The notes under the pieces: model-generated
What the model saw: only the letters and a program-made list of their open reading frames with translations
Database searches by the model: none
Told to the model about the DNA's origin: nothing
Assembly (NCBI GenBank): GCA_964604305.1
Contig: CAZRYM010000005.1
Location: forward strand, 7,217-71,216
DNA from: an uncultured Thermotogaceae bacterium
Lineage (GTDB): Bacteria > Thermotogota > Thermotogae > MWEM01
Reading direction: 5' to 3'
Length of the DNA: 64,000 bases
In this document: piece by piece, positions 2,700 to 45,117 of the stretch
How the letters are laid out: each line of letters starts with the position of its first letter
How positions within the stretch are numbered: position 1 is the first letter of the stretch
Position numbers and translations under genes: made by a program

Positions 2700-3245
2700 A
2701 TGGATTACAAATTAGTGACTAGAGGATTTTCAGCAACAGATGCAGTAGAGGATTATGTGGAAAAGAAAGTTTCAAAACTTGAAAAGGTCATGCCGGAAGG
2801 AGATCATGTTCATACCGAAGTTAAGATTGAACGGGAAAACAAAGATTTCAGAGCCGAGCTAACCGTCCACATAAGAGGGGCTGTGGTCAGAACAGATGAA
2901 ATGACCAATGATATGTACGCTTCTCTGGATCTGGCGGTAGATGCGATGGAAAAGAAACTTGAAAAGTATAAGAACAAAAGAATTGCAAGACACCGGGCTT
3001 CTTCCAAGGTGTTATCGGAAGTGATGAAGAAAGAGAAAGAAGAGGATGAATTTGAGGATGAGTTTGAAGATATCGTCAAGACAAAAAGATTTTTCCTCAG
3101 ACCGATGAATCTTGAGGAGGCAAAACTTCAATTGGAAATGTTGGGCCATAATTTCTTTGTTTTCAAAAACGCTGATACAGACGAGATCAACCTGATCTAC
3201 AGACGTCAAAACAAGACAATGGGTTTAATAGAGTTTGAAGTTTAA
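2700..3245 (+). CDS. hpf: Ribosome hibernation promoting factor, long form (HPF/RaiA)
   Basis: N-terminal YfiA-type fold (MDYKLVTRGFSATDAVEDYVEKKVSKLEK...), an acidic linker (EDEFEDEFED), and the C-terminal dimerisation domain typical of long HPF. RBS AAAGGGGTGA. Confidence 0.9.
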   Translation: MDYKLVTRGFSATDAVEDYVEKKVSKLEKVMPEGDHVHTEVKIERENKDFRAELTVHIRGAVVRTDEMTNDMYASLDLAVDAMEKKLEKYKNKRIARHRASSKVLSEVMKKEKEEDEFEDEFEDIVKTKRFFLRPMNLEEAKLQLEMLGHNFFVFKNADTDEINLIYRRQNKTMGLIEFEV

Positions 3246-3434: not shown

Positions 3435-4871
3435 TTGATAAAAAGGATTCTTGTGGGAACGTTTCAGGATGAGATAATGATCGCTGTTCTAGAGGGAAAT
3501 CAGCTCGTTGAGTTGCATCTGGAGGAGATGGATAACGAAAGTATTACCGGGAATATCTTTCTCGGCAAAGTGGAAAATTATGTTAGTAGTTTGGATGCTT
3601 CTTTTATTGATATTGGGAAAGGTAAAAACGCATTTTTGAGAAATAAGGACTTCTTGAAAAATTCCCTGGGAAATAAAGAGGCAAGAAAAAAAAGTGAAGT
3701 TCCGGTTAAGGGGAACAAGATAATCGTTCAGGCAAAAAAGGACCCTATGGGGAGCAAAGGGCCGCAAGTGACGACGAATATAGGGATTGCCGGTAGATAT
3801 CTTGTCTTTATGCCTTTTTCCAGAAGTGTAGGAGTTTCAAAAAAGATTGAAGACAGCCTTGAAAGAAAACGCCTGCATAATCGGATGTCAAAGGTTGTCA
3901 AAGATTCCGGCATCATTATAAGGACAGTAGCACAAAATGTTGATTATGAAGCTTTGGAAGAGGAATATCAACTTTTAAAAAAAAGATGGGAAGAAATCCA
4001 CAAACAGTTCCAAAGGTTCAAAAAGCCTCGATTGTTGCACGATGAGGCTGAAATTCTGGAATACCTTATGAGGGAAAAATATGATACTACCGTTGATGAG
4101 GTGGTAACCAATTCCAGGGAGATGTTTGCAAAACTTGAAAAGATATTAAAAGTCTTTGACAAAAAACCCGTGAAGGGTAAATTGCGTTTATGCAAAGAAG
4201 ATGTCTTTGACACCTATAATGTAAGTGAACAACTGGAGGCGCTTTATTCAAGAAAGATTGAGATGGAGTGTGGTGGTTGGTTGGTGGTGGATAGAACGGA
4301 AGCATTTACCATCATTGATATCAATTCCGGAAGTAACGTATCCAGTAACAACACCAGAGACATGGCATTGGAGACGAATGTACAATCAGCTACAGAAGTA
4401 GCGAGACAGCTTAGACTGAGGAATTTAAGTGGGATAATAATCGTTGACTTCATAGATATGGAACAAGAAAACGATCGGATGACAATTTTGAAGGTTTTGA
4501 ATGAAGAGTTGAAAAAGGATAAGGCAAAAACTGCTGTGATGGGTTTTACAAAACTTGGCTTAGTAGAAATTACAAGAAAGAGAACCTCCCCTCCTGTGGA
4601 GGAGTTGCTTTTCGAAAAATGCCCCATATGTCATGGAGAAGGATTGGTATTTTCTCCAAAGCGAATACTGAAGATGATTTCTGTGGAGTTGGACCAGGCC
4701 AAAAGGTTGAAAGACGTAAAAGGTATTCAACTAAATCTCCATTGGAGCCTTTCAGGTTATTTGAATAAGGAATGGCGTGAAGCTATGTTAAAAAGCACAG
4801 GATTTGATTCTATCGACATCGATTTTTCACGAAAAGATCCTAACGGGTATGATATAAAATATAAAAAGTAA
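3435..4871 (+). CDS. rng: Ribonuclease G / RNase E family endoribonuclease
   Basis: N-terminal S1 domain (ITGNIFLGKVENYV...FIDIGKGKNAFL), catalytic DINSGS motif, RNLSGIIIVDFIDM, and a C-terminal CPxCHGxG zinc link. It aligns along its length to E. coli Rng. Start is either TTG 3435 or GTG 3453. Confidence 0.85.
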   Translation: MIKRILVGTFQDEIMIAVLEGNQLVELHLEEMDNESITGNIFLGKVENYVSSLDASFIDIGKGKNAFLRNKDFLKNSLGNKEARKKSEVPVKGNKIIVQAKKDPMGSKGPQVTTNIGIAGRYLVFMPFSRSVGVSKKIEDSLERKRLHNRMSKVVKDSGIIIRTVAQNVDYEALEEEYQLLKKRWEEIHKQFQRFKKPRLLHDEAEILEYLMREKYDTTVDEVVTNSREMFAKLEKILKVFDKKPVKGKLRLCKEDVFDTYNVSEQLEALYSRKIEMECGGWLVVDRTEAFTIIDINSGSNVSSNNTRDMALETNVQSATEVARQLRLRNLSGIIIVDFIDMEQENDRMTILKVLNEELKKDKAKTAVMGFTKLGLVEITRKRTSPPVEELLFEKCPICHGEGLVFSPKRILKMISVELDQAKRLKDVKGIQLNLHWSLSGYLNKEWREAMLKSTGFDSIDIDFSRKDPNGYDIKYKK

Positions 4872-4889
4872 CTTTGAGAGGTGAATAAT

Positions 4890-6977
4890 ATGAGGAAGAT
4901 ACAATTTATATTTGGCGTTCATAATCATCAACCTGAAGGGAATTTTGATTTTGTTTTCCAGAAATCCTTGGAAAAAGGGTATAAGCCTTTTTTGGAAACG
5001 GTTTTTGAATATCCCCAGATTAAAACAACACTGCATTTTAGTGGATCTCTGCTTCAATTCATAGAAAAAAAGGACCCCAAGTTAATCGACTTGATAAAAA
5101 AAATGCTTGACAGAGATCAGATCGAATTGTTCTCAGGTGGTTATTATGATCCCATATTATCTGTGATTCCTGAGGAAGATCGGTTACTTCAGATCAAGAT
5201 GATGAACGAGAAACTGAAAGAGTTGTTTGATTACAAGGCAAAGGGCTTTTGGCTTTCTGAAAGAGTTTGGGAACCATCCATGGTATCAACGCTTTCAAAA
5301 CATGATGTAGAATACATTGCCCTGGATGACGATCACTTTAAAAATGCCGGTAATTACGAAGATGAACTCAATGGATATTTTCTGACTGAGGACCAGGGTT
5401 ATCCCTTGAAGATATTCCCAATAAACAAAAAGCTCAGATATCTTATACCTTTTCATGATATTGACGAAACAATCAATTTCTTACACGAAAGGGCATCAGA
5501 AAGTGCTCAAAGCATGTATCTAATGATGGATGATGGTGAGAAATTCGGTATTTGGCCGGGTACTCATGAGCTGGTTTTCAAAAAAGGTTGGCTTGAAGGC
5601 TTTTTTAAAAGACTCATTGAAGAGTCGGAATGGTTAACTTTAACAACTTTTGGAGAGTATGCAAAGGAAGTTCCACCACGTGGGAGAACGTATATTCCCG
5701 ATTCCTCTTATCCTGAGATGATGAGCTGGGCACTTCCCAGTAGAGCCAGAACACATTATGAGAGATTGGAAAATGAACTAAAGGAAAAAGGGGATTTCGA
5801 AAGATTTTCAATGTTTCTCAAGACTGGTTTCTGGAGGACTTTTTTGTCCAAATATACTGAATCTAATCTGATGCACAAAAAGATGCTTCACATCAGATCA
5901 AAAATCACCGGGGAAATGCCTGATAATATTAAAGAAAAGATACTGAAAAGTCAATCTAATGACGCTTATTGGCATGGCCTTTTTGGTGGATTGTATCTTC
6001 CTAATTTAAGAGCGGAAGTCTATAAAAATCTTATAAGCGCAAATAGGAGCATAGATGAAATCAAACATTCGGGTGAGGATGATTTTGTTGAAATTGAGGT
6101 AAAAGATTATGATATTGACGGATATGAGGAGATCATCATCAACAACAAAAGACTCACGATCGGAATTTCTCCGGCGAATGGCGGGAGAATATTCGAACTT
6201 TCTTTAAAAAATAAAGAAATTAACCTGATGAACAATCTTACCAGAAGATATGAACCTTATCATGAAAAGATGGAAGAAGCGAAAACGAAGGAGGAAGGCG
6301 GATACGGCAACCATTTGACAAAGGAAAAAGGCTTGGAAAAGCTCCTGAATTATGATTGGTATGAACGTTTTTCCTTCCTGGATCATTTCCTTGGAGAATG
6401 GAGTAATTTGGAAAAATACGCCCGATGCCGTTATCCGGAACAAGGTGACTTTACCAATCAGGATTATGCCTTTGAGATAATGGATAAGGAAACAGGTTCA
6501 ATCAAGTTGACAAGAGAAGGGCACATCTGGCATGGATCTCTTTGGGTTCCCATAAAACTGGAAAAACACATCAAACTTGATGATGATGGCATACTGCTAA
6601 AAAACGTAATTACAAATATGTCCACCCACAATATTCCAATCTTCTACGGATGTGAATACAACATCAACATGATTTCTGACAGTTCAATGGATCGTTTTCT
6701 ATACGCCGGTGAATATCCCAAAATCGGGATCTCGGAAACAGGAAAGGTTAAGGCAACCTATTTTGGCTTAAGAAGTGAATTTGAAGGTATAGACATTAAC
6801 TTACAACCTGACAGAGAAGTAGAATTTTGGTATTTTCCGGTTTATACGGTTTCCTATTCGGAAAGAGGGTACGAAAAACTCTATCAAACTACGAGTATAA
6901 CCCCTATTTATAAATTTAAGTCGGAACCCATGTCGACCTTTGAAACAGAAATGAAATTTAAAATAGAAGAATTTTAA
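4890..6977 (+). CDS. Glycoside hydrolase family 57 protein (alpha-amylase/4-alpha-glucanotransferase type)
   Basis: The N-terminus (FIFGVHNHQPEGNFDFVF...LHFSGSLLQFIE) is the GH57 signature. ATG 4890 is preferred because of the strong RBS GAGAGGTGA; the ORF track started at GTG 4881. Confidence 0.8.
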   Translation: MRKIQFIFGVHNHQPEGNFDFVFQKSLEKGYKPFLETVFEYPQIKTTLHFSGSLLQFIEKKDPKLIDLIKKMLDRDQIELFSGGYYDPILSVIPEEDRLLQIKMMNEKLKELFDYKAKGFWLSERVWEPSMVSTLSKHDVEYIALDDDHFKNAGNYEDELNGYFLTEDQGYPLKIFPINKKLRYLIPFHDIDETINFLHERASESAQSMYLMMDDGEKFGIWPGTHELVFKKGWLEGFFKRLIEESEWLTLTTFGEYAKEVPPRGRTYIPDSSYPEMMSWALPSRARTHYERLENELKEKGDFERFSMFLKTGFWRTFLSKYTESNLMHKKMLHIRSKITGEMPDNIKEKILKSQSNDAYWHGLFGGLYLPNLRAEVYKNLISANRSIDEIKHSGEDDFVEIEVKDYDIDGYEEIIINNKRLTIGISPANGGRIFELSLKNKEINLMNNLTRRYEPYHEKMEEAKTKEEGGYGNHLTKEKGLEKLLNYDWYERFSFLDHFLGEWSNLEKYARCRYPEQGDFTNQDYAFEIMDKETGSIKLTREGHIWHGSLWVPIKLEKHIKLDDDGILLKNVITNMSTHNIPIFYGCEYNINMISDSSMDRFLYAGEYPKIGISETGKVKATYFGLRSEFEGIDINLQPDREVEFWYFPVYTVSYSERGYEKLYQTTSITPIYKFKSEPMSTFETEMKFKIEEF

Positions 6978-7025
6978 AATAAATTTACGCAGCGTCTGAG
7001 AAATTGGACGAAAGGAGATGTAACA

Positions 7026-9188
7026 GTGGCATTTAAGCAATGGAAATTTGAAATAGCCGGCAGAGAGTTGGTTGTAGAACATGGAAAAATGGCAAAACAA
7101 TCAGCGGGATCTGTAGTTGTTAGATTGGGAGATACGGTCGTTTTGATAACGGCTAATTGTAAAAAATCAGCATCCGGAATGGACTTTTTTCCGTTAACCG
7201 TTGAGTTTCAGGAAAAGTTTTATTCATCCGGGAAGATACCCGGGGGATTTTTAAAAAGAGAAGGAAGGCCGGGAGATACATCAATACTGGCTGCAAGGCA
7301 AATAGACAGACCCATTAGACCTCTGTTTCCAGAAGGTTTTTATAACGAGGTTCAGTTGATTGCAACGGTATTATCAATAGATGAGGATAATCCGGCGGAT
7401 GTTCTTGGTATTCTTGGAGCCTCACTTGCGTTAAACCTTTCAAATATACCATTTGAAGGAATAGTAGCAGGGGTGAAAGTTGGTTATGTAGACGGTCAGC
7501 CGGTTGTTTTCCCAACAGAAGAAGAGTTGAGGAAAAGTGATATTGAGTTGACTGTAGCCGGTTCAAAAGAGGCTATTGTAATGGTAGAAGGTGAAGCCAA
7601 AGAAGTGGAAGAGGAACGGATGCTTGAAGGTCTGGACAAAGCTCATGAGGCAATCAAACAGATGTGCGAATTCCAGGAAAAAATATTAGAAGAGGTGGGG
7701 CCTTTTGAGAAGATGGAGTTTGAAGTATTAGCTCTATCAGATGAGGAGAAAGGCAGCCTGGAATCTTTGGTTGATAAAGCTGAACTGAAAACCAGAATGC
7801 TAACTACCGGGAAGAAAAATGCTGAGAAGGCACTTGGAGAATACAAAGAACAAATTCTTGAACAATTTGTCGAAAGTCTTGAAGAAGAAGCGGACTCTGT
7901 TAAACTTAGACTTGTTTCCGAGCATTATGAAGAGATTCTAAAGGGAATTATGAGAAGATCAATCGTAGAAGACAAAAAGCGTTCCGATGGCCGCGATCCC
8001 AGAACCATCAGACCCATTACATGTGAAACCGGTATTTTACCCAGGGCACATGGTTCTGCTCTTTTTACAAGGGGAGAAACTCAAAGTTTGGGAATCCTCA
8101 CACTTGGAAGTGGTCGGGATGTTCAGTACATCGATTCAATTTATGAGGAATCGGAGAAGAATTTCATGTTGCATTACAATTTCCCGCCGTTTTCCGTCGG
8201 TGAGGTTAAAAGAATGTTTGGCACCTCTCGAAGAGAAATAGGACACGGCCATCTTGCAGAGCGTTCTGTAAAATCGATCATGCCTTCTGTAGAAGATTTT
8301 CCCTATACCGTTCGGGTAGTATCCGAAATACTTGAATCAAACGGATCATCATCAATGGCAACAATATGTTCAGCATCACTTTCATTGATGGATGCGGGGG
8401 TTCCTGTGAAGAAACACGTTGCCGGAATAGCCATGGGTATGATAAAAGAGCCTGATGATACGGTCATTCTTTCGGACATACTTGGAATAGAAGATCACCT
8501 TGGTGATATGGACTTTAAAGTTGCCGGGACTAAAGAAGGTATAACAGGATTTCAGATGGATGTAAAAGTCAGCGGAATAAGCAGGGACATCATGGCACAA
8601 GCATTGAATCAGGCCAAAGAGGGAAGACTGCACATATTGGACATCATGTACAACACCATTGAACAGTCCAGGGAGAAGCTTTCTGAATATGCTCCTGTGG
8701 CTATCTCTTTCGATATTCCGGAAGAATCTATCGGAGAAGTTATCGGACCCGGAGGAAAGACTATCAAGTTCATCACCGCTGAATTCGATGTTAAGGTAGA
8801 GATTGACGATGAAAAAGGAAAGGTTAATATCTACGGAGATGATGCCAAAAAGAGTAACGCAGCCGCTGAATACATACACAGAATGCTGGAACCCCTTGTG
8901 CCTGACAAGGAATACACCGGAAAGATAACCCGTATCGAAAAATATGGGGTATTTGTGGAATTGGCACCCGGTAAAACAGGCCTTCTCCACGTTTCAAACA
9001 TGGAAGGCTATGTGAAAGATCCAGCAGCAAAGTTTAACCTTGGAGATGAAGTAAAGGTTGTCTGCGGTAAACTTGAACAGGGTGGAAAGATTGATTTGAG
9101 AGAACCCGGCAGTAAAAAGAAAAGTACCGGCAACAACGACAGAAGGGGTGGCAGAAAACCACCTGAAAGAAGAGAAAACAGGAAGTGA
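7026..9188 (+). CDS. pnp: Polynucleotide phosphorylase
   Basis: 720 aa with two RNase PH domains, KH and a C-terminal S1 (GKITRIEKYGVFVEL). GTG start with RBS AAAGGAGA. Confidence 0.95.
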   Translation: MAFKQWKFEIAGRELVVEHGKMAKQSAGSVVVRLGDTVVLITANCKKSASGMDFFPLTVEFQEKFYSSGKIPGGFLKREGRPGDTSILAARQIDRPIRPLFPEGFYNEVQLIATVLSIDEDNPADVLGILGASLALNLSNIPFEGIVAGVKVGYVDGQPVVFPTEEELRKSDIELTVAGSKEAIVMVEGEAKEVEEERMLEGLDKAHEAIKQMCEFQEKILEEVGPFEKMEFEVLALSDEEKGSLESLVDKAELKTRMLTTGKKNAEKALGEYKEQILEQFVESLEEEADSVKLRLVSEHYEEILKGIMRRSIVEDKKRSDGRDPRTIRPITCETGILPRAHGSALFTRGETQSLGILTLGSGRDVQYIDSIYEESEKNFMLHYNFPPFSVGEVKRMFGTSRREIGHGHLAERSVKSIMPSVEDFPYTVRVVSEILESNGSSSMATICSASLSLMDAGVPVKKHVAGIAMGMIKEPDDTVILSDILGIEDHLGDMDFKVAGTKEGITGFQMDVKVSGISRDIMAQALNQAKEGRLHILDIMYNTIEQSREKLSEYAPVAISFDIPEESIGEVIGPGGKTIKFITAEFDVKVEIDDEKGKVNIYGDDAKKSNAAAEYIHRMLEPLVPDKEYTGKITRIEKYGVFVELAPGKTGLLHVSNMEGYVKDPAAKFNLGDEVKVVCGKLEQGGKIDLREPGSKKKSTGNNDRRGGRKPPERRENRK

Positions 9189-9192
9189 TTTA

Positions 9193-10470
9193 GTGGATTC
9201 AGCCATAGCAACAACTTCGAAACTTAATAACGGAATGGAAATATTTTCACATAAAATGAACGGAGTAAGATCCGTAAGTCTTTCGATTGCGGTAAAGGCG
9301 GGTTCTTCAAATGAACCTGCCGGAAGCTCCGGTGCTGCTCATTTTACAGAGCATATGGTTTTCAAAGGAACCAGGACCCGCTCTCCAATAGAATTAAAAG
9401 AGCCTATTGAAAGAGTTGGTGGAACGCTCAATGCTTTTACCGGTAAGGAAAATACCGTTTACTTTGCAAGGGTACCAGATTCAAAATCAAGGATAGCTCT
9501 GTCAATATTAAAGGATATATGCAGTGAGTCATTATTTCCACAGAAATTTTTTGACCTTGAAAAGCAGGTTGTTATCGAGGAAATTTCAGCTGCAGATGAT
9601 GATCCCGCTGATATTGTTTATGAACAATTTTTCAAAAATGTATGGGGAAAATGCAACTACGGGAATCCCGTTTTAGGTACACTTGACAGTATACAAGACA
9701 TTAACAGGCAAGATCTTCTTGATTTTTACAGAACCAAATATAATCCTTCCAATATGGTTTTTTCAGTAGCCGGAAATTTCCCGGTGGAACTTTTGGAAAG
9801 TTTTAATGACTTGGCCTATACTCAATCGGAAAGAGAAGTATCTTCTTTAATATACTCACCTGAACGTTCGATAACGGTTACTGAAAAGGAAGATCTAAAA
9901 CAGCTTCACATGTTGATTGGTATCGAAGCACCTTCAAGACAGGATCCGGATTTTAACGTTTTTCAAGTCTTGAATACACTTTTGGGTGGAGGAATGAGTT
10001 CAAAACTTTTCAATCGACTCCGGGAAGAATTAGGTTTGGTATACACAATAGATTCGGGATTAATAAGCTATCCGGAGGGAGGGCTTTTTTTCATTTACGC
10101 AGCAACGACACCTGAAAGGTTTTTAAAGCTCAAAGATGAACTGATGAAAGAACTTTTAAAGATCGTGAAAAACGGAATGAATGAACAGGATATCAATTAC
10201 GGAAAAGAAAGGTTGAAAGGAAAACTTCTTCTTTCAACGGAAAGCACCTATTCCACAATGATGAGAAACCTTGATACCGGCCTTGCCTTTGGTAGACCGC
10301 TGAGTGTAGAGGAAATGGTGGAAAGGATTAATGCAGTGGATATTTCCCGGATGGATAAGGTTATGGAAAAATACTTTTCACGAAAATGGATACTGAGTCT
10401 GGTGACTCCAAAAAAGATCCTGAAACAATCGTTAATCGATAACTGGGAGGAGAAGGGGATAACGATTTGA
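9193..10470 (+). CDS. M16 family zinc peptidase (insulinase-like; YmxG/MlpA-type), encoded directly after pnp
   Basis: Inverted zinc motif HFTEHMVFKGT (HxxEH). GTG 9193 is preferred (RBS AGGAAG 8 nt upstream) because ATG 9148 would overlap the pnp 3' end by 41 bp. The pnp-M16 peptidase order matches Bacillus pnp-ymxG. Confidence 0.8.
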   Translation: MDSAIATTSKLNNGMEIFSHKMNGVRSVSLSIAVKAGSSNEPAGSSGAAHFTEHMVFKGTRTRSPIELKEPIERVGGTLNAFTGKENTVYFARVPDSKSRIALSILKDICSESLFPQKFFDLEKQVVIEEISAADDDPADIVYEQFFKNVWGKCNYGNPVLGTLDSIQDINRQDLLDFYRTKYNPSNMVFSVAGNFPVELLESFNDLAYTQSEREVSSLIYSPERSITVTEKEDLKQLHMLIGIEAPSRQDPDFNVFQVLNTLLGGGMSSKLFNRLREELGLVYTIDSGLISYPEGGLFFIYAATTPERFLKLKDELMKELLKIVKNGMNEQDINYGKERLKGKLLLSTESTYSTMMRNLDTGLAFGRPLSVEEMVERINAVDISRMDKVMEKYFSRKWILSLVTPKKILKQSLIDNWEEKGITI

Positions 10471-11597
10471 AAATAATCTGGAAGCGAACAGAGGATTTAA
10501 AGGCAGGCGAAATATGTGGCGATGATGTATTCGATCCCAACAGCTTTGTTTTGCTTGCTCATAAATCCAGTATTCTGGATTCAAAAACAATCAAATATCT
10601 TCAGAGAAGGGAAGTAGAGTGGGTTCCAGTAAGAATCCAAGATGGCGGAGAAAAAGAAGAAAACATCATACTGGAGCTTGAGGACGAATATTCCAAAGAA
10701 GCCAAAGCCATTCTCTCACCAGAACTCCCCTTAATCGTTTCTGATGAAAAATACCATGAATCCATTGCCCGCTTTGAAACCGTTACGAAAACTTTTCTAA
10801 AAACAAACTCCTTTCAAAAAGAAGAAGTTGTTAATCTTAGTAATGAATTGGTGAATGAAGTGCTTAAGAGTAATTCCAGCGTTTTTAATTTCATGACGGA
10901 CATCGCCCCGGGGTTTATCATCAAACATGGAATTAACACTGCAATTCTTGCTTGTGTTCTTGGAAAGGCTTTAAATAAGTCAAGGCATGTCCTATTTAAA
11001 TTAACTAAGGTTGCTTTATTACATGATATCGGCTTAATTTACGCCGGGAAAGAAAAATCCCTGGATTATGTTGAAGATATATTTCAACAATACAAACACG
11101 GCGCATTGAACAGGGTAAAGATACATCCTGTTATTGGGGTGAAAATCATCAATAAAGTAGCCCCTGGATTTCTGGAGAAAGATGAAGAAGACGCCCTGAT
11201 CGAACATCATGAACGTTATGATGGCAATGGCTTTCCCATGGGGGCAAAGGGTGAAAAAATTAACGAAATATCTCGTTTGATGGCCATTCCCGATGCTTAC
11301 GATACCTTGATTACAAAGGTGGGAGGGAAATCCACTATGGATCCATATACCGCATTGAAATGGATAGTATCCAATTCAGGAATATTGTTCGACCCAACTT
11401 TTGTGAAGACCTTTGTCCAATTGACCGGTATTTACCCTACCGGAACCCATGTCAGATTAAGTAACGGAACCAGGGGAACAGTTATATCAAAAGGAGGGAA
11501 GGCGATAGGGCGTCCGATTTTACTGGTTGAAGATGAAGAAATCTCTTTAAGCGATAAAACAGATTTATTCATTACCGAGGTGCTTGGTGTTGATTAA
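10467..11597 (+). CDS. HD-GYP domain protein (putative c-di-GMP phosphodiesterase) with N-terminal ~90 aa domain; GYP motif variant GFP
   Basis: LLHDIGLIY (HD) and HHERYDGNGFPMG (HD-GYP signature with Y->F). The TTG start overlaps the stop of the upstream peptidase gene. Confidence 0.8.
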   Translation: MKIIWKRTEDLKAGEICGDDVFDPNSFVLLAHKSSILDSKTIKYLQRREVEWVPVRIQDGGEKEENIILELEDEYSKEAKAILSPELPLIVSDEKYHESIARFETVTKTFLKTNSFQKEEVVNLSNELVNEVLKSNSSVFNFMTDIAPGFIIKHGINTAILACVLGKALNKSRHVLFKLTKVALLHDIGLIYAGKEKSLDYVEDIFQQYKHGALNRVKIHPVIGVKIINKVAPGFLEKDEEDALIEHHERYDGNGFPMGAKGEKINEISRLMAIPDAYDTLITKVGGKSTMDPYTALKWIVSNSGILFDPTFVKTFVQLTGIYPTGTHVRLSNGTRGTVISKGGKAIGRPILLVEDEEISLSDKTDLFITEVLGVD

Positions 11598-12666
11598 ATG
11601 GAAGCAGGTCAATACATTAAGAGACGGGGATATTTGTTCCGAAACGATTATGGGAAACAACCATGATGATGTTGTCATAGAAAATGGGGAAAAGATTACT
11701 TTTAAAACAATTCAGAAGCTTCATAACAGAGGTATAGACTGGATTTCTGTTTATGAAGAAGATGAAAATGATACTCCCCTCAACGATCTCTTTACAGAAG
11801 AAAAACTCGAAAAATTTTCATCCGAATTATCTCAGGTTTGTGAAGAGACTTTGAGAGAGGGAAGAATAAATATCGGAAAGACCAAGCAGATCAGTGACGA
11901 GATTAACAAAGAAATTATTGAAGAATATGGGGAATACGTAGTCCCTTCTCTGGTAAAGTTAAAGAATATGGATGATTATACCTTTACCCACCAAGTAAAT
12001 GTTGCTATCATTTCCACTATACTTGCTACTGAGAAATATGGTAAAAAAAAGGAAATCATAGAAAAATTCACCATGGGTGGTTTATTGCACGATATGGGGA
12101 AATTGTGGATTCCCGGTGAAATACTGCAAAGTAATGAACGTTTAAAATCCTTTGAATATGATATTATCAAAAAACATCCGGAATACGGGCATAAGATCGC
12201 TTTGTTGTCTGGGGTGGATAATGAATCGATATTGAACGCTATTAAGTGTCATCACGAGAGATGGGATGGAAAGGGTTATTTGGAGGGTTTAAACGGTCTA
12301 AATATCCCTTTAGAGGGTAGGCTTTTAATGGTTGCTGATGTATTTGACGCCTTAACAACTAAACGCCCTTACAAAGATGCATGGGAGCCTTATGAAGCAG
12401 TTAGTTTTATCGTAAAGCAATCCAAGAAGATGTTCGATCCTGAAATTGTCCGACTATTTTTAATAGCGTTTGGACTTTATCCCATTAACACGAAAGTGAT
12501 TTTGACCACAGAAGAACTGGCAATAGTGGTAGGTAACAAAAGGGGTTCTATAACCAGACCCATTGTAAAAGTAATTAGGAATGATCAGGAAATAGAGATT
12601 GATTTATCAAAAGAAGAGAAAGTTAGTATTAAAAAGGTCATAAAAATAAGAATGCTGAACAATTAA
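11584..12666 (+). CDS. HD-GYP domain protein, tandem paralogue; GYP motif variant GYL
   Basis: LLHDMGKLWIP and HHERWDGKGYLEG. The N-terminal (W..V..L.DG-IC...) and C-terminal segments are collinear with the upstream paralogue. It overlaps the previous gene by 14 bp. Confidence 0.8.
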   Translation: MVLIKWKQVNTLRDGDICSETIMGNNHDDVVIENGEKITFKTIQKLHNRGIDWISVYEEDENDTPLNDLFTEEKLEKFSSELSQVCEETLREGRINIGKTKQISDEINKEIIEEYGEYVVPSLVKLKNMDDYTFTHQVNVAIISTILATEKYGKKKEIIEKFTMGGLLHDMGKLWIPGEILQSNERLKSFEYDIIKKHPEYGHKIALLSGVDNESILNAIKCHHERWDGKGYLEGLNGLNIPLEGRLLMVADVFDALTTKRPYKDAWEPYEAVSFIVKQSKKMFDPEIVRLFLIAFGLYPINTKVILTTEELAIVVGNKRGSITRPIVKVIRNDQEIEIDLSKEEKVSIKKVIKIRMLNN

Positions 12667-12674
12667 TAACCGGG

Positions 12675-13937
12675 GTGATCGCTATTTTTCCCGATATGAA
12701 TTCTCAGGAACTTGTACCTGGCCTTTTTTTACCCGATTATTCTAAAAGGTCGATCGTGAATCTGTCAAATTTTATCTTAAAATTCTTTAGCTGTTCTACT
12801 CCATATCCTCCCTTGGAAATAATGGATAAAATCAGATTTCCCGAAAAGAAAAAAAAGGTCGTGTTGTTTGTAATCGATGCCATTGGAAGGGATAATCTTC
12901 AAATGGCTGCTGAACAATCTGCATCATTAAAGAATGACTTACTCATATATGAAAAGGAAGTATTAACGAGTGTTTTTCCATCAACTACTACCGCAGCCCT
13001 CACCTCTTACAGCACTGCTCTTCCTCCGTTGGAACACGGTATGTTGGGGTATACACTGTTTCTATCTGATTATTCCTCTCTTGTAAACATGATTTTGTTA
13101 ACTCCTCCGGAATTTGAAAGGGATTCGCTGATCCAATGTGGACTAAACCCTATGAAATTCTTAACAACACCGACGATTTTTGAAATCCTTCAAGAAAAGG
13201 GTGTCAAATGCTGGACAATTACCTCAGACTTGTTTGTGGAGTCAGGTTTAACAAAAATGCATCATAAAGGTTCTGCAAAGCGATCCTATGCAGGTATGTT
13301 GGAAATGTTTTATCAACTGTTAAAAACAATTGAAGAAGAGGATTCCAAGACATTTATCTTTATGTACTGGGGTTTGACCGATACCCATGGTCATCATTAT
13401 GGAACAAATTCAAGGCCTTATCAGGGAGGAATTGAGTATCTTTTCAGAATGCTTCGACAGGAAGTTATTGATAGAATGAATAAACAGCAGATTGATGAAA
13501 CCCTGTTCCTTGTCAGCTCAGACCACGGACAAATCGATACAACCTGGCAGGATGAGGAATGGATAACCTCAGAAGACGAACTTTTTGAACACTACATTCA
13601 TCCGCCTATGTCCGGTGAGCCTCGAGCTGTTTATTTCAACGTTAAAGACCCGGATGGTTTTACAAACTATTTCAACAGACGTTTCTCAAAGCGATTTCAT
13701 CTGATTGAAAAAAAACATGCCATAGAGAGCAATCTTTTTTCCAACACCGCTTTACCAATCAGTGTTCAGGAGAGAGGGTTTAAGGAGAATCATTCACGTA
13801 TTGGAGACTTCATAGCCATTGCTAAAAACAGGTATTCCCTGCATTTTAAGCATCATGGCAAATCGTATACCTTAAAGGGTAAACATGGTTCATTGACATC
13901 AGAGGAACTGCTGGTACCTCTGTTAATATATTCATAG
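12675..13937 (+). CDS. Alkaline-phosphatase-superfamily protein, type I phosphodiesterase/nucleotide pyrophosphatase (NPP)-like
   Basis: VVLFVIDAIGRDNL (metal-ligand Asp region), SSDHGQ, and HGSLTSEELLVPL at the C-terminus are typical of the NPP/AP core. The exact start (GTG 12675 vs ATG 12696) is uncertain. Confidence 0.6.
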   Translation: MIAIFPDMNSQELVPGLFLPDYSKRSIVNLSNFILKFFSCSTPYPPLEIMDKIRFPEKKKKVVLFVIDAIGRDNLQMAAEQSASLKNDLLIYEKEVLTSVFPSTTTAALTSYSTALPPLEHGMLGYTLFLSDYSSLVNMILLTPPEFERDSLIQCGLNPMKFLTTPTIFEILQEKGVKCWTITSDLFVESGLTKMHHKGSAKRSYAGMLEMFYQLLKTIEEEDSKTFIFMYWGLTDTHGHHYGTNSRPYQGGIEYLFRMLRQEVIDRMNKQQIDETLFLVSSDHGQIDTTWQDEEWITSEDELFEHYIHPPMSGEPRAVYFNVKDPDGFTNYFNRRFSKRFHLIEKKHAIESNLFSNTALPISVQERGFKENHSRIGDFIAIAKNRYSLHFKHHGKSYTLKGKHGSLTSEELLVPLLIYS

Positions 13938-13981
13938 ATTCAATCAGTTACAATTTTTGTCGCAGCAAAGGATATGATAGC

Positions 13982-14785
13982 ATGTCATCAAAAATTTGTG
14001 TTGTTTTACTAAAGGATTTTGCGCTGTTAGGGAGGAAAGGAGAGCTTCTTGAAATTGAAAGTGATTATGCCAGATCATACCTCCTTCCGAAGGGAATTGT
14101 AAAACAAATAACCGATAAAAATACCGTGATCAGGTTAAAAGAGAAAATAAAAGATCAAAAGAAAGAGAAACAGACTTCTTTGTCTGAGACATCGAAGGCT
14201 TTATTATATAAATATAACGATCCTTCTGCTGGCTCAGAAAGGCAATCCGTATTGGGGAAATTGCCCCCGATGAAATTCAGGGTACATTTCAAGAATTCTC
14301 ATACAGAGAAGATGAGTTGGGAATGGTATCCCGCTTACAAATTGAACAGGCTCCCGGCAGGTTACAGATTTGTTATTCTCACACACAAAGGGAGGCAATA
14401 CCTTGGAACATTTCATTATCTTCAACAATTGTTAATCAGAAGGGTGCACTCTCCCTTGATTATCGACGGATCGAATTTGGGCTGGGTAAAAGGGAAACCG
14501 GCGATGGATCCTATATTTGACCTTTATGAGTACATTGCAGATAAATCTGAAAAGTTTTTCTTTCCTTTCATCTGGGCATTTGACAAATCTTTTAAAAGGA
14601 AATTGCCAAAAACAGAAAGAAGGGAATTAACTGAATTTTGTGCATGGTCAGGGACAAAAGTGGTAGATTACGCAGATGAAGAGATTTTTAAATTAGCAAA
14701 ACGATATCACACAAAATATATTTTCTCTCAAGATCATTTTAAACAGTACCATACAGAGTATTATACAAGGATCACTTACAGATAA
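13982..14785 (+). CDS. Fusion protein: ribosomal protein L9 N-terminal domain + Regnase/Zc3h12a-like NYN ribonuclease domain
   Basis: aa 1-45 (MSSKICVVLLKDFALLGRKGELLEIESDYARSYLLPKGIV) matches the L9 N-domain (VILLKDVKGLGKKGE..EV.DGYARNFL.PKG). A K/E-rich helix follows. The C-terminal half has IIDGSNLGW and DYADEEIFKLAKRYHTKYIFSQDHF, which resemble Regnase-1 VIDGSNVAM and DDRFIVKLA...VSNDTYRDL. Confidence 0.6.
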   Translation: MSSKICVVLLKDFALLGRKGELLEIESDYARSYLLPKGIVKQITDKNTVIRLKEKIKDQKKEKQTSLSETSKALLYKYNDPSAGSERQSVLGKLPPMKFRVHFKNSHTEKMSWEWYPAYKLNRLPAGYRFVILTHKGRQYLGTFHYLQQLLIRRVHSPLIIDGSNLGWVKGKPAMDPIFDLYEYIADKSEKFFFPFIWAFDKSFKRKLPKTERRELTEFCAWSGTKVVDYADEEIFKLAKRYHTKYIFSQDHFKQYHTEYYTRITYR

Positions 14786-14805
14786 ACAAGTTGAGGGGTG
14801 TAAGA

Positions 14806-15975
14806 ATGGAACAGATAGAAGACTTAAAATTGGAAAATGAAACTTTAAAGAAAAGAATAGAGATTTTGGAAAGGGAGTTAACTGAACAGGATATTTTGAA
14901 GTTTCAGTGGGCCGGTAGTCTTGGAAGATGGGAATTGAATCTGAAGACAAAAAAGGTAAAATTCAATCCATTGAAAATCCAGACTTTGGGATACGAACCA
15001 GGAGAAATCGATCCGGATATGTATGGTTTTGTGAATATGATTCACAAAGACGATTACGATACCGCCATGCAGGCTATGAGAGAACATATTGCGGGAAAGG
15101 TTCCCGTTTACGAAACAGAATACAGGATAAAAACAAAGACAGGCGAATTTAAAACCTTTTATGACAGGGGGAAGATAATCAAAAAGGACGAAGCCGGACA
15201 TCCTGAATTGGTTGCAGGGATTGTTTTTGATATAACGGAGAGAAGGAAGATGGAAGAGAAGCTGAAAGAGACGGTTTCTCAACTGAAAAAGGAAAATGAG
15301 CTCACCAATCAAATCCTGTCTATTATTTCACATGATCTCAGGGGGACAATAGGTGCCATCTCTTCATTAATCGACCTTTTTCTAAACGAGGAATATCAGT
15401 TATCCTCCTCTGAAAAAGAACGTTTTCTTTATGACATCAATATATCTGCGAAGTCTTCATTGTCAATATTGGAAAATCTTCTGAATTGGTCAAGAAACGT
15501 AAAAGGAAGTATTAAAGCGGATTTTACCGCATTCAACCTGACTGAAGTTGTGAATGATATAGTGAGTTTTAACAGGAGTATTTTCAGTTCAAAAAACATT
15601 ACCATAACGAATAACATTAAAGAGAAGATCTACGTCAAAGGTGATAGCGATATGATTCATACCGTTGTTAGAAATCTGATCTCCAACGCCTTAAAATATA
15701 CCAAAAGAAACGGGGAAATTAGCATTGATCATACAAAAGATCACGAAAAATGTTTTTTGATTATCAAAGATAACGGAGTTGGAATGGATGAAAGTAGATT
15801 AAAGGAAATTAACAGGAACAAGGTAAAATCAAAAGAAGGAACTGAAGGAGAAACCGGAACGGGTCTGGGACTTTCACTTGTGAGAGAGTTTTTGGAGAAA
15901 AACAACGGGATTATGGAAATAGAAAGTAAAAAAGGGGTAGGTACTACAATTAAAATCGGGTTACCAGAAGCATAA
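14806..15975 (+). CDS. Cytoplasmic PAS-domain sensor histidine kinase (orphan, no adjacent response regulator)
   Basis: Coiled-coil N-terminus, PAS domain, H-box SHDLRGTIGAI, N box NLISNALKYT, G boxes DNGVGMD and GTGLGLSLV. No TM segments. ATG 14806 is preferred (RBS GAGGGGTG). Confidence 0.85.
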   Translation: MEQIEDLKLENETLKKRIEILERELTEQDILKFQWAGSLGRWELNLKTKKVKFNPLKIQTLGYEPGEIDPDMYGFVNMIHKDDYDTAMQAMREHIAGKVPVYETEYRIKTKTGEFKTFYDRGKIIKKDEAGHPELVAGIVFDITERRKMEEKLKETVSQLKKENELTNQILSIISHDLRGTIGAISSLIDLFLNEEYQLSSSEKERFLYDINISAKSSLSILENLLNWSRNVKGSIKADFTAFNLTEVVNDIVSFNRSIFSSKNITITNNIKEKIYVKGDSDMIHTVVRNLISNALKYTKRNGEISIDHTKDHEKCFLIIKDNGVGMDESRLKEINRNKVKSKEGTEGETGTGLGLSLVREFLEKNNGIMEIESKKGVGTTIKIGLPEA

Positions 15976-16429
15976 AAAAATAGGCACAGCAATTGAAGAC
16001 TTAAAAATTCACTGAAGAAAGCGTTAGAATAAGATGTTTTTTAAAAGTGTTAATGGAGTTTGAATAGAAAGTACACGCTGTACCTATTTATAAAAAAACT
16101 AAAAATCTCGAAATTACATATAATTTATTCATCAGATAAATCAATCGCGCAAACATAATAAAGCAATAATACCATACGATTCTGCTTGCTATTTCATTCA
16201 TTTTTTACTTTAATCATCTCGATAACTATACAACAAATAATTCGGTTTGTCAAGTATTATTTTTTAATTTTTATTGTCAGTTTGGTTTAATTTATCTCAG
16301 CCGATCTTCTTTAGACAAAATCAGCTTTCTCTCAAGCGCAGATTAAAGGGTAATTTAGCAACATAACAAAAATAATGGATTTAATAAAGGTAAAGAATTC
16401 AAAAGCCCTTTATCTACTTGTGTTCTTAA

Positions 16430-16459
16430 TTGTACAATTTTTTTATTTAGTAGTATAAT
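16430..16459 (+). promoter_or_regulatory. Sigma-A-type promoter upstream of MFS transporter gene
   Basis: TTGTAC, an 18-nt spacer, then TATAAT. It sits about 35 nt upstream of the RBS AAAAGGAG. Confidence 0.4.
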
Positions 16460-16494
16460 TCAACAAGTAAAACGAAAAAGGAGCGACCGATCCG

Positions 16495-17880: not shown

Positions 17881-17884
17881 GCAT

Positions 17885-17923
17885 AAAAAAAGAGAGGGCT
17901 ATTTAAAGCCCTCTCTTTTTTTG
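17885..17923. terminator. Bidirectional rho-independent terminator (A-run / 9-bp GC-rich stem / T-run)
   Basis: AAAAAA AGAGAGGGC tatttaaa GCCCTCTCT TTTTTTT. It serves the MFS gene on the + strand and the minus-strand small-ORF/GGDEF unit. Confidence 0.75.
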
Positions 17924-45115: not shown

Positions 45116-45117
45116 TC

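Follow-up and report, generated by a model that had tools for sequence, protein, structure and literature searches.

Does the string of genes that follows pnp in an uncultured Thermotogota bacterium constitute a dedicated cyclic-nucleotide or pGpG turnover module, as an earlier note on this DNA proposed? In the 64,000-nucleotide stretch that we analyzed (i.e., the window), five plus-strand open reading frames lie 3' of pnp and an M16 peptidase gene (Table 1). They encode two HD-GYP-type proteins (HD1 and HD2), an NPP-like protein, a fusion of an L9 N-terminal domain to an NYN nuclease (L9NX), and a PAS histidine kinase. The overlaps (M16/HD1, 4 bp; HD1/HD2, 14 bp) and gaps (HD2 to NPP-like, 8 bp; NPP-like to L9NX, 44 bp; L9NX to kinase, 5 bp, or 20 bp if the kinase starts at ATG 14806) bear out the description of five tightly packed, co-oriented genes: no junction overlaps or is spaced by more than 44 bp.

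Table 1. Positions of the genes of the string, and of the L9NX domains, in the window
Feature	Position (nt)	Residues	Strand	Basis or remark
RNase E/G family gene	3435..4871		+	PF10150, E 2.9e-89; context only
GH57 alpha-amylase / 4-alpha-glucanotransferase gene	4881..6977		+	PF03065, PF09094, PF09095
pnp, polynucleotide phosphorylase	7026..9188		+	TIGR03591, 934.7 bits (cut-off, 525)
M16 zinc peptidase	9148..10470		+	PF00675, PF05193; HxxEH at residues 65-69
HD1	10467..11597		+	HD_5/HD (Pfam); HD_5, 58.6 bits
HD2	11584..12666		+	HD_5/HD (Pfam); HD_5, 100 bits
NPP-like	12675..13937		+	PF01663 full length, E 1.6e-20
L9NX (L9N-NYN fusion)	13982..14785		+	Ribosomal_L9_N, 37.6 bits (cut-off, 20.7)
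L9NX, bL9 N-terminal rRNA-binding domain	14000-14122	7-47	+	Ribosomal_L9_N
L9NX, L9-like long connecting helix		46-74	+	
L9NX, small beta domain		98-152	+	Low-confidence linker before
L9NX, Zc3h12a-type NYN/PIN nuclease domain	14444-14782	155-267	+	
PAS histidine kinase	14791..15975		+	PAS_3 and HATPase_c (Pfam)

The tightly spaced plus-strand run starts at the RNase E/G gene, which is also present upstream at loci L001 and L003; the GH57 gene begins 9 bp further on and lies directly 5' of pnp (gap, 48 bp). The genes for long HPF, RNase E/G, PNPase, and the NYN RNase lie in one co-oriented run here. The pnp product contains the complete set of PNPase domains (Pfam). The M16 gene likely starts at GTG 9193, which would place the pnp stop 4 bp before it; the L003 ortholog is called 15 residues shorter. 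No plausible intrinsic terminator was found between genes on the plus strand of positions 4881-15975, where the few matches were weak and within coding sequence, and the sole strong match (17884-17923) lies 3' of an MFS gene. Tight spacing is retained at 44 to 66% protein identity. Judged solely by its overlapping and closely spaced genes, the string is probably co-transcribed.

The order pnp-M16-HD1-HD2-NPP-L9NX was syntenic in 11 of the 11 species-level genomes carrying the fusion, a clade known from MAGs only, down to 44% L9NX identity; the block conserved in the clade ends with L9NX. The downstream flank varies among distant genomes of the clade; upstream, the GH57 gene is syntenic in most clade genomes and has no match in L015. 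Since the block is syntenic in all 11 genomes while its flanks change, the gene arrangement exceeds chance. Part of the block extends further: in four distant Thermotogota lineages, a small sample outside the clade that excludes the pnp loci of cultured Thermotoga, Kosmotoga, and Mesotoga, pnp is again accompanied by M16 and an HD1-type gene, in most cases together with an HD2-type gene. Tepiditoga spiralis and L020 have the order rpsO-pnp-M16-HD-HD, and L022 has rpsO-pnp-M16 and an HD1-type gene without an HD2-type gene; their PNPases are only 54 to 56% identical to that of the window. M16 follows pnp in L018, L020, and L022, where rpsO takes the place of the GH57 gene 5' of pnp. The neighbor of M16 always belongs to the same orthologous HD1-type group. 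However, neither the HD1/HD2 pairing nor the link to pnp is obligate, because the HD1-type gene occurs away from pnp in L019 and L021 and without HD2 in L022.

The remaining genes have narrower distributions. The NPP-like and L9N-NYN genes are joined to the block in one clade only (11/11 species-level genomes), and the NPP homologs of Kosmotoga and Marinitoga show no linkage to pnp or HD genes. The PAS kinase gene occurs only in loci of at least 72% identity (L003-L009); it is missing from L001/L011 and L012-L015 and is thus a recent add-on outside the conserved block. The string is therefore layered rather than a single module, its old block consisting of pnp, M16, and the two HD-GYP genes. 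Of the five-gene unit originally proposed, the tight packing and the conserved pnp/HD-GYP linkage hold, while the absence of the kinase from distant genomes and the clade-specific linkage of NPP speak against the whole.

On balance, we consider it moderately probable that the locus is a layered, co-transcribed string whose foundation is an old block tying PNPase, perhaps physically or through regulation, to HD-GYP-type phosphohydrolases. The oldest layer would comprise (rpsO-)pnp and M16 with an HD1-type gene, after which an HD2-type gene usually comes. To this, the clade alone would have added an NPP-type enzyme (a phosphodiesterase/pyrophosphatase) and an NYN endoribonuclease with an L9 anchor, and the closest relatives alone an orphan PAS kinase that is probably unrelated in function. 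The surroundings of the block point to RNA and nucleotide turnover: here, the run that includes the RNase E/G, HPF, PNPase, and NYN RNase genes, and in relatives, PNP_UDP_1, PfkB, and DHH/DHHA1 genes close to HD1-type genes. An alternative, which we regard as unlikely, is that unrelated leading-strand genes in a compact genome have kept their order through shared ancestry, without selection for linkage. The adjacency of pnp and M16 is common across bacteria for no known functional reason, which favors this explanation, as do the derivation of the bulk of the evidence from one MAG clade, the richness of Thermotogota in HD-GYP genes (making adjacency likelier), and the presence in the same run of a GH57 glycoside hydrolase with no obvious connection. 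Yet the block persists where its downstream neighbors change and, in the case of L015, where the GH57 gene upstream does so as well, and pnp, M16, and an HD1-type gene persist together in four lineages despite low PNPase identity and differing neighbors. The constancy of the HD1-type group beside M16 and the retention of overlapping stop/start junctions also argue against mere inertia.

The two HD-GYP proteins differ in what their residues predict. HD2 (HD2-type group bootstrap, 99) matched the Persephonella marina enzyme PmGH (4mcw, E 1.4e-30), V-cGAP3 (E 2e-24), and PA4781 (E 4e-17). It shares with PmGH (PDB 4MCW/4MDZ) the H, HD, H, HH, and D ligands, the D183/K225 pair, Tyr285, and the RxYK motif. 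Its residues are D130 (= D183), H136, H169/D170, K173 (= K225), H198, H223/H224, and D252, accompanied by Y232 and L233 (GYL) and R261/K264 (RPYK, equivalents of R314 and K317); all PmGH catalytic residues and c-di-GMP contacts read via the side chain are kept. Compared with PmGH and the binuclear class, GYP is replaced by GYL, the KPG motif by SNE, and the third-metal residue E185 by Tyr (Y132); HD2 resembles PA4781 (4R8Z) in lacking the third-metal Glu. Unlike PmGH and PA4781, HD2 has a DUF3391-like rather than a GAF or REC N-terminal domain and an additional C-terminal beta extension. HD2 is most likely a near-canonical binuclear-class HD-GYP c-di-GMP phosphodiesterase, although activity prediction from residues has known exceptions in this family. 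Tyr at the E185 position marks a class reported to stop at pGpG; together with the retained side-chain contacts, it suggests that the main product of HD2 is probably pGpG. Among the exceptions, PA4781 and VCA0681 yield GMP although the third-metal Glu is missing, and RpfG-like proteins are variable.

HD1 (HD1-type group bootstrap, 95) keeps seven of the eight PmGH metal ligands (H154, H186/D187, H220, H247/H248, and D276), with F150 at the position of the third-metal Glu (PmGH E185). P148, L190, and F256 (GFP) occupy the positions of D183, K225, and Y285, and Arg314 is absent. Across HD1-type proteins, D183 is replaced by P, S, G, K, or R and K225 by L or Y, Arg314 is unconserved, and Y285 is replaced by F within the clade. 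The substitutions D183A and K225A abolished PmGH activity. The losses do not reflect decay, because HD1 orthologs (49 to 91% identity) are as conserved as those of HD2. HD1 is accordingly classed as an unconventional HD-GYP paralog and is probably not an ordinary c-di-GMP phosphodiesterase. It would still bind metal and, since it lacks both the Asp/Lys catalytic pair of PmGH and the c-di-GMP-reading side chains, would most likely act on another substrate or serve as a nucleotide-binding or regulatory partner. In HD1, an insert also follows the HD motif, the N-terminal region is DUF3391-like, and the C terminus carries a beta extension. [quoted passage not shown] Both keep binuclear-type ligands and lack the hydroxyl of the GYP Tyr as well as the consensus Lys that follows the HD motif (Tyr deleted [G-P] and His for Lys in Bd1817; Phe and Leu in HD1), but HD1 also lacks the D183 equivalent, carries the insert, and lies in a conserved pnp-M16 context. 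At the sequence level, the resemblance to Bd1817 is marginal, with only HD2 matching 3tm8 (E 1e-4).

The motifs first reported for HD1 (HHERYDGNGFP, residues 247-257) and HD2 (HHERWDGKGYL, residues 223-233) are exact, and the HD dyads are kept. The meaning given to the altered tripeptides (i.e., changed substrate range or lost activity) is weakly founded: the characterized active phosphodiesterase PA4781 carries the same GFP as HD1, HD2 orthologs have GYL, GYP, GYN, GYC, GYV, or GYT, and PmGH activity was not substantially lowered by G284A, Y285A, or P286A. Among 80 unrelated HD-GYPs, GYL occurred in 21 and GFP in 4. On residue content, the informative contrast is the D183/K225 pair, present in HD2 and absent from HD1. 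Likewise, the shared terminal extensions do not indicate a tandem duplication, as they are family-wide (present in P0176, P0177, P0182, and P0183 from other lineages) and only 25 of 100 bootstraps placed HD1 and HD2 as sister groups.

The NPP-like protein has an NPP fold and a complete bimetallo site with its Thr nucleophile (invariant D68, T104/T105, D236, H240, D283, H284, and H404); it is cytoplasmic, with no signal peptide. It is only 13 to 16% identical to NPP/ENPP family members (Xanthomonas NPP, ENPP4, and ENPP6), and the family to which it belongs, with members in Thermotogota and Thermoproteota, bears no annotation beyond "alkaline phosphatase family protein." PorX-type AP-superfamily domains are among its profile and fold matches. 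The active site and PF01663 thus sustain its identification as an NPP-type enzyme, but a nucleotide substrate is not established, since NPP-fold relatives include lipid and phosphonate hydrolases (ENPP6, ENPP7, and phosphonoacetate hydrolase). The HD pair of Tepiditoga is followed, after one other gene, by a PNP_UDP_1 gene and then by a DHH/DHHA1 gene, which is the third after the pair and lies roughly at the place of NPP here; TM1595 of T. maritima, of the DHH/DHHA1 family, hydrolyzes linear dinucleotides. This position, together with the Tyr of HD2, makes a dinucleotide or pGpG turnover reading chemically plausible, and NPP may clear linear dinucleotides or other nucleotide diesters.

A single second-messenger module, in which GYP-specialized HD-GYPs are followed by an NPP enzyme degrading the linear product and a PAS kinase provides sensory input, nevertheless appears improbable. 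The predicted stop of HD2 at pGpG, the full-site NPP enzyme directly after the HD pair with its PorX-type matches, the Tepiditoga DHH/DHHA1 gene, and a GGDEF cyclase gene 2.4 kb downstream on the opposite strand are all consistent with it. However, the GGDEF gene, like the kinase gene, is confined to the closest subclade, and the NPP linkage is clade-specific. The tripeptide variation is uninformative, what sets HD1 apart is missing catalytic residues and not a retuned pocket, cyclic-nucleotide signaling offers no evident role for the L9N-NYN nuclease, and no c-di-GMP riboswitch or other Rfam element was found in the region. The dedicated module thus retains its chemical plausibility but not its unity. 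The kinase (PAS_3-HisKA-HATPase_c; H-box His at residue 181; HisKA just under the cut-off, 24.4 versus 26.9 bits) is orphan and cytoplasmic as described, with no response regulator or REC gene within about 10 kb at the syntenic locus L003.

The L9N-NYN fusion is new and clade-restricted and is the novel part of the string. The architecture is real: Ribosomal_L9_N scores above its cut-off, and although Pfam gave no NYN match for this protein at E ≤ 10, the predicted fold and homology through relatives support the assignment (PF11977 is weak in family members P0256 and P0258 and above the cut-off in P0264 and P0268, which are distant relatives), as do the invariant motifs IDGSN, FDxSF, VDYAD, and FSxDHF. 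Invariant residues of the nuclease domain are D162, N165, D201, D229, D232, S249, and D251, and the domain belongs to a very small separate NYN subfamily (14 matches among 1.84 billion representatives). Its NYN/PIN fold and its acidic residues (IDGSN, D, D, and SxD) are those of Rae1/YacP of B. subtilis and Zc3h12a/MCPIP1-type domains. Rae1, a precedent for a bacterial NYN nuclease acting on translating or collided ribosomes, lacks an L9 domain, whereas L9NX bears a bL9 N-domain with its connecting helix as a covalent part and may plausibly dock at the bL9 site of the 50S subunit. The long helix is kept; most profile alignments to solved L9 chains stop at about residue 75. We rejected L9NX as an rplI ortholog, because the bL9 C-terminal domain is absent, replaced by the beta domain and nuclease.

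A module for RNA decay and ribosome quality control, in which mRNA is cut by L9NX on ribosomes and broken down further by RNase E/G and PNPase, and the HD proteins and NPP clear nanoRNAs, dinucleotides, and nucleotides for salvage rather than c-di-GMP, would fit the co-oriented run of RNase and HPF genes, the genes for nucleoside phosphorylase, PfkB kinase, and DHH/DHHA1 proteins that relatives carry beside or close to HD1-type genes (in L019 and L021, the solo HD1-type gene is followed by PNP_UDP_1 and PfkB), the nanoRNA chemistry of pGpG, which some HD-GYPs hydrolyze, and the action of Rae1 at stalled or collided ribosomes, but it is very unlikely, given that HD2 retains the c-di-GMP-specifying Arg/Lys pair and Tyr, that general nanoRNase activity is known for no HD-GYP, and that L9NX and NPP, both late additions, cannot explain the old pnp-HD linkage. 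The layered string that we prefer recalls the DosC/DosP-PNPase "oxydegradosome" of E. coli, which likewise ties c-di-GMP enzymes to PNPase and RNase E. Whereas the tie here is one of gene order with HD-GYPs, that of E. coli is a physical complex with GGDEF/EAL haem proteins.

The reading best supported by our analysis is an old PNPase-linked HD-GYP block, which was extended in this lineage by two more enzymes cleaving nucleic acids or nucleotides and to which a kinase gene was joined recently. The earlier note had treated the five genes after pnp and the M16 peptidase gene as one dedicated cyclic-nucleotide or pGpG turnover module. Of that proposal, the coupling to pnp stands and dinucleotide turnover is a reasonable role, whereas the five-gene unit is not supported, given an NPP-like gene whose linkage is clade specific and a kinase of recent arrival. 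The observation from which it started is confirmed, since the junctions are as tight as described (i.e., overlaps of 4 bp for M16/HD1 and 14 bp for HD1/HD2, followed by gaps of 8, 44, and 5 bp) and the motifs of the two HD-GYP proteins, HHERYDGNGFP (HD1) and HHERWDGKGYL (HD2), are exact. The G+C content is ~37 to 39% across most of the stretch occupied by the gene run.

Genes of the co-oriented run around pnp (positions in the window)
Feature	Position	Strand	Remark
Lysine-2,3-aminomutase-like radical-SAM gene	344-1615	+	
ORF of 343 aa, function unknown	1591-2622	+	Overlaps radical-SAM gene; no Pfam match at E<=0.001
Long-form hibernation factor HPF	2700-3245	+	Has S30AE and the associated C-terminal domain
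RNase E/G	3435-4871	+	9 bp from GH57
GH57 amylase/glucanotransferase	4881-6977	+	Immediately upstream of pnp
pnp	7026-9188	+	
M16 peptidase	9148 or 9193 to 10470	+	
HD1 (HD-GYP)	10467-11597	+	
HD2 (HD-GYP)	11584-12666	+	
NPP-like protein	12675-13937	+	
L9NX (bL9 N-terminal domain [L9N] fused to NYN nuclease domain)	13982-14785	+	
PAS histidine kinase	14791-15975	+	

A consensus scan of the + strand found no plausible intergenic terminator within the gene run; the sole strong + strand terminator lies at positions 17884 to 17923, after an MFS gene and past a 520-bp AT-rich gap that follows the kinase gene. On the basis of the overlaps and gaps of <=44 bp, the lack of a plausible intergenic terminator, and the conservation of spacing across species, we infer that the genes from pnp to the kinase are probably transcribed as a single unit. 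Since the RNase E/G gene nearly abuts GH57, and the HPF and RNase E/G genes precede GH57-pnp directly in the same orientation, the run may begin well before pnp. Several ribosome and RNA-decay genes are found in this co-oriented run. In a search of the whole 64-kb window against Rfam at the gathering threshold, the only structured-RNA gene detected was a tRNA-Ser(GGA) at positions 57198 to 57286 (- strand), so control of the gene run by a riboswitch or other structured RNA was rejected.

Among 5.8 billion proteins, the L9N fusion forms only 15 clusters, and a genome scan placed it in 11 species-level genomes, each of which is a MAG with the label Thermotogota or Thermotogaceae. When the window proteins were mapped onto all L9N-fusion loci, pnp-M16-HD1-HD2-NPP-L9NX was found in identical order and with tight spacing at every mapped locus (11 of the 11 genomes). 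This order remains intact at identities as low as 44% (L9NX), 49% (HD1 and HD2 each), and 64% (PNPase). The conservation of the block, which the earlier note proposed to check, extends up to L9NX but not to the kinase. The kinase gene (identity of at least 72%), the MFS gene, and a divergent GGDEF cyclase gene are limited to the closest subclade (loci L003 to L009), and the genes that follow L9NX in L001/L011 and in the distant members L012 to L015 are different and unrelated. The kinase is thus a recent add-on, and its membership in the proposed module lacks support. It carries a HATPase_c domain (75 bits), a HisKA match of 24.4 bits (under the cut-off of 26.9), and an H-box (SHDLR). Its description as an orphan was accurate, as no REC gene occurs within ~10 kb of the kinase gene in the syntenic locus L003.

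The front of the string (pnp-M16-HD) is much older than the rest. The order rpsO-pnp-M16-HD-HD is present in Tepiditoga spiralis (locus L018) and in a JGI contig (L020), and rpsO-pnp-M16-HD is present in L022. The PNPases of these three loci share only 54 to 56% identity with that of the window. Downstream of the Tepiditoga HD pair (L018, positions 10050 to 12508) are genes for an iron-dependent repressor, a PNP_UDP_1 nucleoside phosphorylase, and a DHH/DHHA1 (NrnA/TM1595-like) protein. In L019 and L021, a solo HD1-type gene is followed by PNP_UDP_1 and PfkB kinase genes. This recurrence of nucleoside- or dinucleotide-salvage neighbors beside HD1-type genes (L018, L019, and L021) is suggestive. 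NPP homologs of Kosmotoga pacifica and Marinitoga aeolica (~35% identity) reside in unrelated neighborhoods; therefore, an NPP-HD linkage outside the clade was rejected and the linkage is specific to this clade. Given the differing reach of the front, NPP/L9NX, and the kinase, the string consists of three layers of different age. Upstream of pnp, GH57 is the adjoining gene in this clade (no match was detected in L015, the most distant member), and rpsO takes that place in Tepiditoga, L020, and L022.

The neighboring genes point more towards RNA and nucleotide turnover than towards classical signal transduction: the window encodes RNase E/G, HPF, PNPase, and a NYN RNase, and the relatives encode nucleoside phosphorylase, PfkB kinase, and DHH/DHHA1 proteins. 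A precedent is known from Escherichia coli, in which c-di-GMP enzymes act with PNPase (Tuckerman et al. 2011; review, PMC8846402). The results on the HD-GYP pair offer a concrete and testable link, in a bacterium other than E. coli, between PNPase-mediated RNA decay and the metabolism of c-di-GMP or dinucleotides.

HD1 and HD2 are members of a known family, and the HD-superfamily ligands (H...HD...H...HH...D) are present in both and conserved across all orthologs. Their residues were compared with those of the Persephonella marina HD-GYP protein (PmGH). For HD1 H154, the MAFFT register was preferred, since it preserves the H-x-x-N-x-A pattern common to HD1 and HD2; one phmmer alignment placed this residue three positions off register relative to PmGH H189.

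Residues of HD1 and HD2 at functional positions of PmGH
PmGH position	HD1	HD2
Seven core metal ligands	All kept: H154, H186/D187, H220, H247/H248, D276	All kept: H136, H169/D170, H198, H223/H224, D252
D183 (essential)	P148; P/S/G/K/R in most HD1 orthologs	D130
E185 (third metal)	F150	Y132
K225 (essential)	L190; L or Y throughout HD1-type	K173
Y285 of GYP	F256	Y232
R314/K317 (RxYK)	Arg not conserved	R261/K264 (RPYK)

The catalytic Asp/Lys pair, present in HD2 (D130 and K173), is absent from HD1 (P148 and L190), and the PmGH substitutions D183A and K225A abolish activity (PMC4159591). Among the HD1-type orthologs, the Tepiditoga copy is an exception in keeping Asp at the D183 position. The pair of HD2 is kept in the clade and Tepiditoga orthologs, with the Asp of the L020 copy located one position off. 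Regarding c-di-GMP recognition, HD2 retains the Tyr and RPYK and carries SNE in place of KPG (a main-chain contact), while HD1 has Phe for Tyr, a nonconserved Arg, no KPG, and an insert after the HD motif. Since HD2 retains these c-di-GMP determinants apart from KPG, c-di-GMP and pGpG stay its most likely substrates. In the survey of Galperin and Chou, Tyr at the E185 position marks a class that stops at pGpG, with exceptions noted by the authors. HD2 is therefore predicted from these residues to be an active c-di-GMP phosphodiesterase with pGpG as its main product. HD1 probably differs in substrate or mechanism or else serves as a nucleotide-binding or regulatory protein. It is under selection rather than decaying, as its orthologs are at least as conserved as those of HD2 (91, 71, 52, and 49% identity in L003, L001, L014, and L015, compared with 82, 66, 51, and 49% for HD2). 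The closest described analog of HD1 is Bd1817, an unconventional HD-GYP protein without the Tyr and with His for the consensus Lys (PMC3188283). The N termini of HD1 and HD2 give the impression of being DUF3391-like, judging from their sequences and the description of the Bd1817 family; a Pfam search of the HD1 and HD2 termini at E<=10 returned no DUF3391 match. Three remote matches of HD1 (database proteins P0179, P0243, and P0253) have a hydrophobic residue for the post-HD Lys (HDIGL or HDIAL), GFP, and no RxYK, a pattern that suggests a wider uncharacterized HD-GYP subclass without the catalytic Lys.

The earlier note regarded the altered GYP tripeptides as a sign of altered function; comparison does not support the weight given to them. 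Each motif is one residue off the signature HHExxDGxGYP, and the characterized active enzyme PA4781 reads HHERWDGRGFPEGL in its crystal-structure sequence, with GFP as in HD1. The third residue of the tripeptide varies among HD2 orthologs (GYL, GYP, GYN, GYC, GYV, and GYT). The deviations seen in HD1 and HD2 were shared by 25 of 80 unrelated HD-GYP proteins (GYL in 21 and GFP in 4), a sample biased by its retrieval as matches to HD1. Moreover, the PmGH mutants G284A, Y285A, and P286A, as well as R314A and K317A, showed no substantial loss of activity (PMC4159591). Three results on the pair are new: HD1 is set apart from its canonical neighbor by the catalytic Asp/Lys pair and not by the GYP tripeptide, that neighbor belongs to a class expected to release pGpG, and a single HD-GYP subgroup, orthologous and catalytically unconventional, is kept beside pnp-M16 across distant Thermotogota.

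The proposed origin of the pair by tandem duplication also lacks support. HD1 and HD2 can be aligned over their full lengths with 27% identity, and a tree built from the loci separates the first genes of the pairs from the second genes, as two groups of orthologs to which the Tepiditoga and L020 copies also belong. In a wider tree with same-architecture HD-GYP proteins of other lineages as outgroups, bootstrap values were 95 for the HD1-type group and 99 for the HD2-type group, and the two groups were sisters in 25 of the 100 replicates (neighbor joining on BLOSUM distances, a crude method). The N- and C-terminal extensions, on which the claim had relied, are found in unrelated proteins as well (P0176, P0177, P0182, and P0183). 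A recent tandem duplication is thus excluded, and one at any depth is unsupported by these crude distance trees. An obligate HD1/HD2 heterodimer is weakened by the HD1-type genes standing alone in L019, L021, and L022. The two most distant clade genomes encode a third HD-GYP-like ORF (L014, positions 13174 to 14145; L015, positions 12661 to 14082) 2.4 to 3.3 kb downstream of L9NX. It carries HDVGR and HHER[YF]DG.GFP, has the final metal-ligand Asp apparently replaced (VNWYDN), and branches outside the HD1 and HD2 groups.

The NPP-like protein is an enzyme of the NPP type whose active site is complete, as PF01663 spans its entire length, the seven canonical positions (D68, T104/T105, D236, H240, D283, H284, and H404) are invariant in an alignment of 32 sequences from Thermotogota and Thermoproteota, and its AlphaFold model is confident (pLDDT, 93.3). 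A Thr/Ser nucleophile accompanies the bimetallo site (D, D/H, D/H, and H), and the fold is that of the NPP core. We hypothesize that it is a nucleotide phosphodiesterase; NPP chemistry includes the hydrolysis of pGpG or other 5'-nucleotide diesters. Its identity to NPP/ENPP fold matches is only 13 to 16%, enzymes specific for choline, sphingomyelin, and phosphonoacetate are among the closest folds (i.e., several substrates are not nucleotides), and the Kosmotoga and Marinitoga loci contain no conserved nucleotide-related neighbors of its homologs. In Tepiditoga, the DHH/DHHA1 gene is the third one downstream of the HD pair, at about the position of NPP in the window, and T. maritima TM1595, of the same family, hydrolyzes linear dinucleotides (PMC8861645). 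By analogy, this hints that different enzymes may fill one role, NPP in the window clade and DHH/DHHA1 in Tepiditoga.

In the structure model of L9NX (pLDDT, 80.8), the bL9 N-terminal domain (residues 7 to 47; PF01281, 37.6 bits against a cut-off of 20.7) is followed by a connecting helix (residues 46 to 74), a low-confidence linker, a small beta domain (residues 98 to 152), and an alpha/beta domain (NYN; residues 155 to 267). The best PDB match is Borreliella L9 (profile E value, 3.3e-8), and the profile alignments to solved L9 chains cross the connecting helix and mostly end at about residue 75. TIGR00158 scored 35.7 bits, under its cut-off of 58.6, and no bL9 C-terminal domain was matched in L9NX, residues 93 to 267 being the beta domain and NYN. 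Since Pfam gave no NYN match (PF11977) in the window protein even at E<=10, the NYN call had to rest on fold and relatives. The alpha/beta domain has a PIN-like fold with conserved acidic residues (D...D...D...SxD). PF11977 scored 20.0 and 17.5 bits in the fusion relatives P0256 and P0258 (both under the cut-off of 23) and 23.3 and 28.8 bits in the distant relatives P0264 and P0268 (above it). The fold and these last two proteins show that the NYN assignment made in the earlier note was right. An exhaustive HMMER search with residues 93 to 267 found only 14 matches among 1.84 billion representatives. The fusion family accounts for five of these (one is a short fragment, and the four full-length proteins share the N-terminal offset of the window protein); the L9N domain is recorded for P0010, and Pfam verified it in P0256 and P0258. 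Eight others are NYN proteins with a different, helical N terminus, two of which are P0264 and P0268. The remaining match, P0261, is spurious; this 701-aa protein consists of ~11 near-identical 57-residue repeats with a weak match to the L9NX beta domain and has the appearance of a DNA repeat array in translation, not of a relative. The L9N-NYN fusion is unique to this clade, and no relevant description of this architecture, which has very few relatives, was found in the searched literature.

An attractive but rather unlikely reading is that L9NX is a ribosome-docked mRNA endonuclease and that, separately, HD1-type proteins may be catalytically disabled HD-GYP nucleotide sensors. L9NX would keep the rRNA-binding N-domain and the rigid connecting helix of bL9, with the C-domain swapped for a NYN nuclease, and may dock at the bL9 site, bringing the nuclease to inter-ribosome mRNA. 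In disomes, the bL9 protein of the leading ribosome stretches as far as the ribosome behind it (PMC11832420), so that L9NX in its place would present the nuclease upon collision. The NYN nuclease Rae1 is reported to cut mRNA upstream of stalled ribosomes (PMC12407103), and together with trans-translation it rescues collided ribosomes (PMC13622287). L9NX would thus be a hard-wired analog of the collision-triggered cleavage by SmrB or Rae1, encoded beside RNase E/G, PNPase, and putative product-clearing phosphodiesterases, and HD1-type proteins may link c-di-GMP or pGpG levels to PNPase. If true, L9NX at the bL9 site would be a natural ribosome-tethered nuclease at the collision interface, with a bearing on stalled-ribosome resolution in bacteria without SmrB or Rae1.

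Several minor features were observed elsewhere in the window. An EAL gene hinted at by a regular-expression match at positions 45088 to 45927 was a false positive (the ORF encodes a ParA/MinD ATPase), and a defense-system reading was rejected, as PADLOC reported nothing relevant for the six proteins examined. The AT-rich stretch after the kinase gene (positions 15976 to 16494) contains no ORF and no Rfam match, and promoter-like hexamers are located at positions 16431 to 16459 (+ strand), just ahead of the MFS gene. The segment from 15960 to 16120 folds only modestly better than shuffled sequences (z = -2.4), and a T run of the terminator type is missing from the stretch. The hairpin at 17884 to 17923 is a strong terminator-like palindrome of 17 pairs; flanked by an A run on one side and a T run on the other, it could also serve the convergent GGDEF gene. 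That gene (positions 18333 to 20003, - strand), 2.4 kb downstream of the kinase gene and on the opposite strand, encodes a 556-aa sensor diguanylate cyclase, in which GGDEF spans residues 400 to 553. Absent from the distant loci and without a match in L006, it co-occurs with the kinase and MFS genes in the close subclade.
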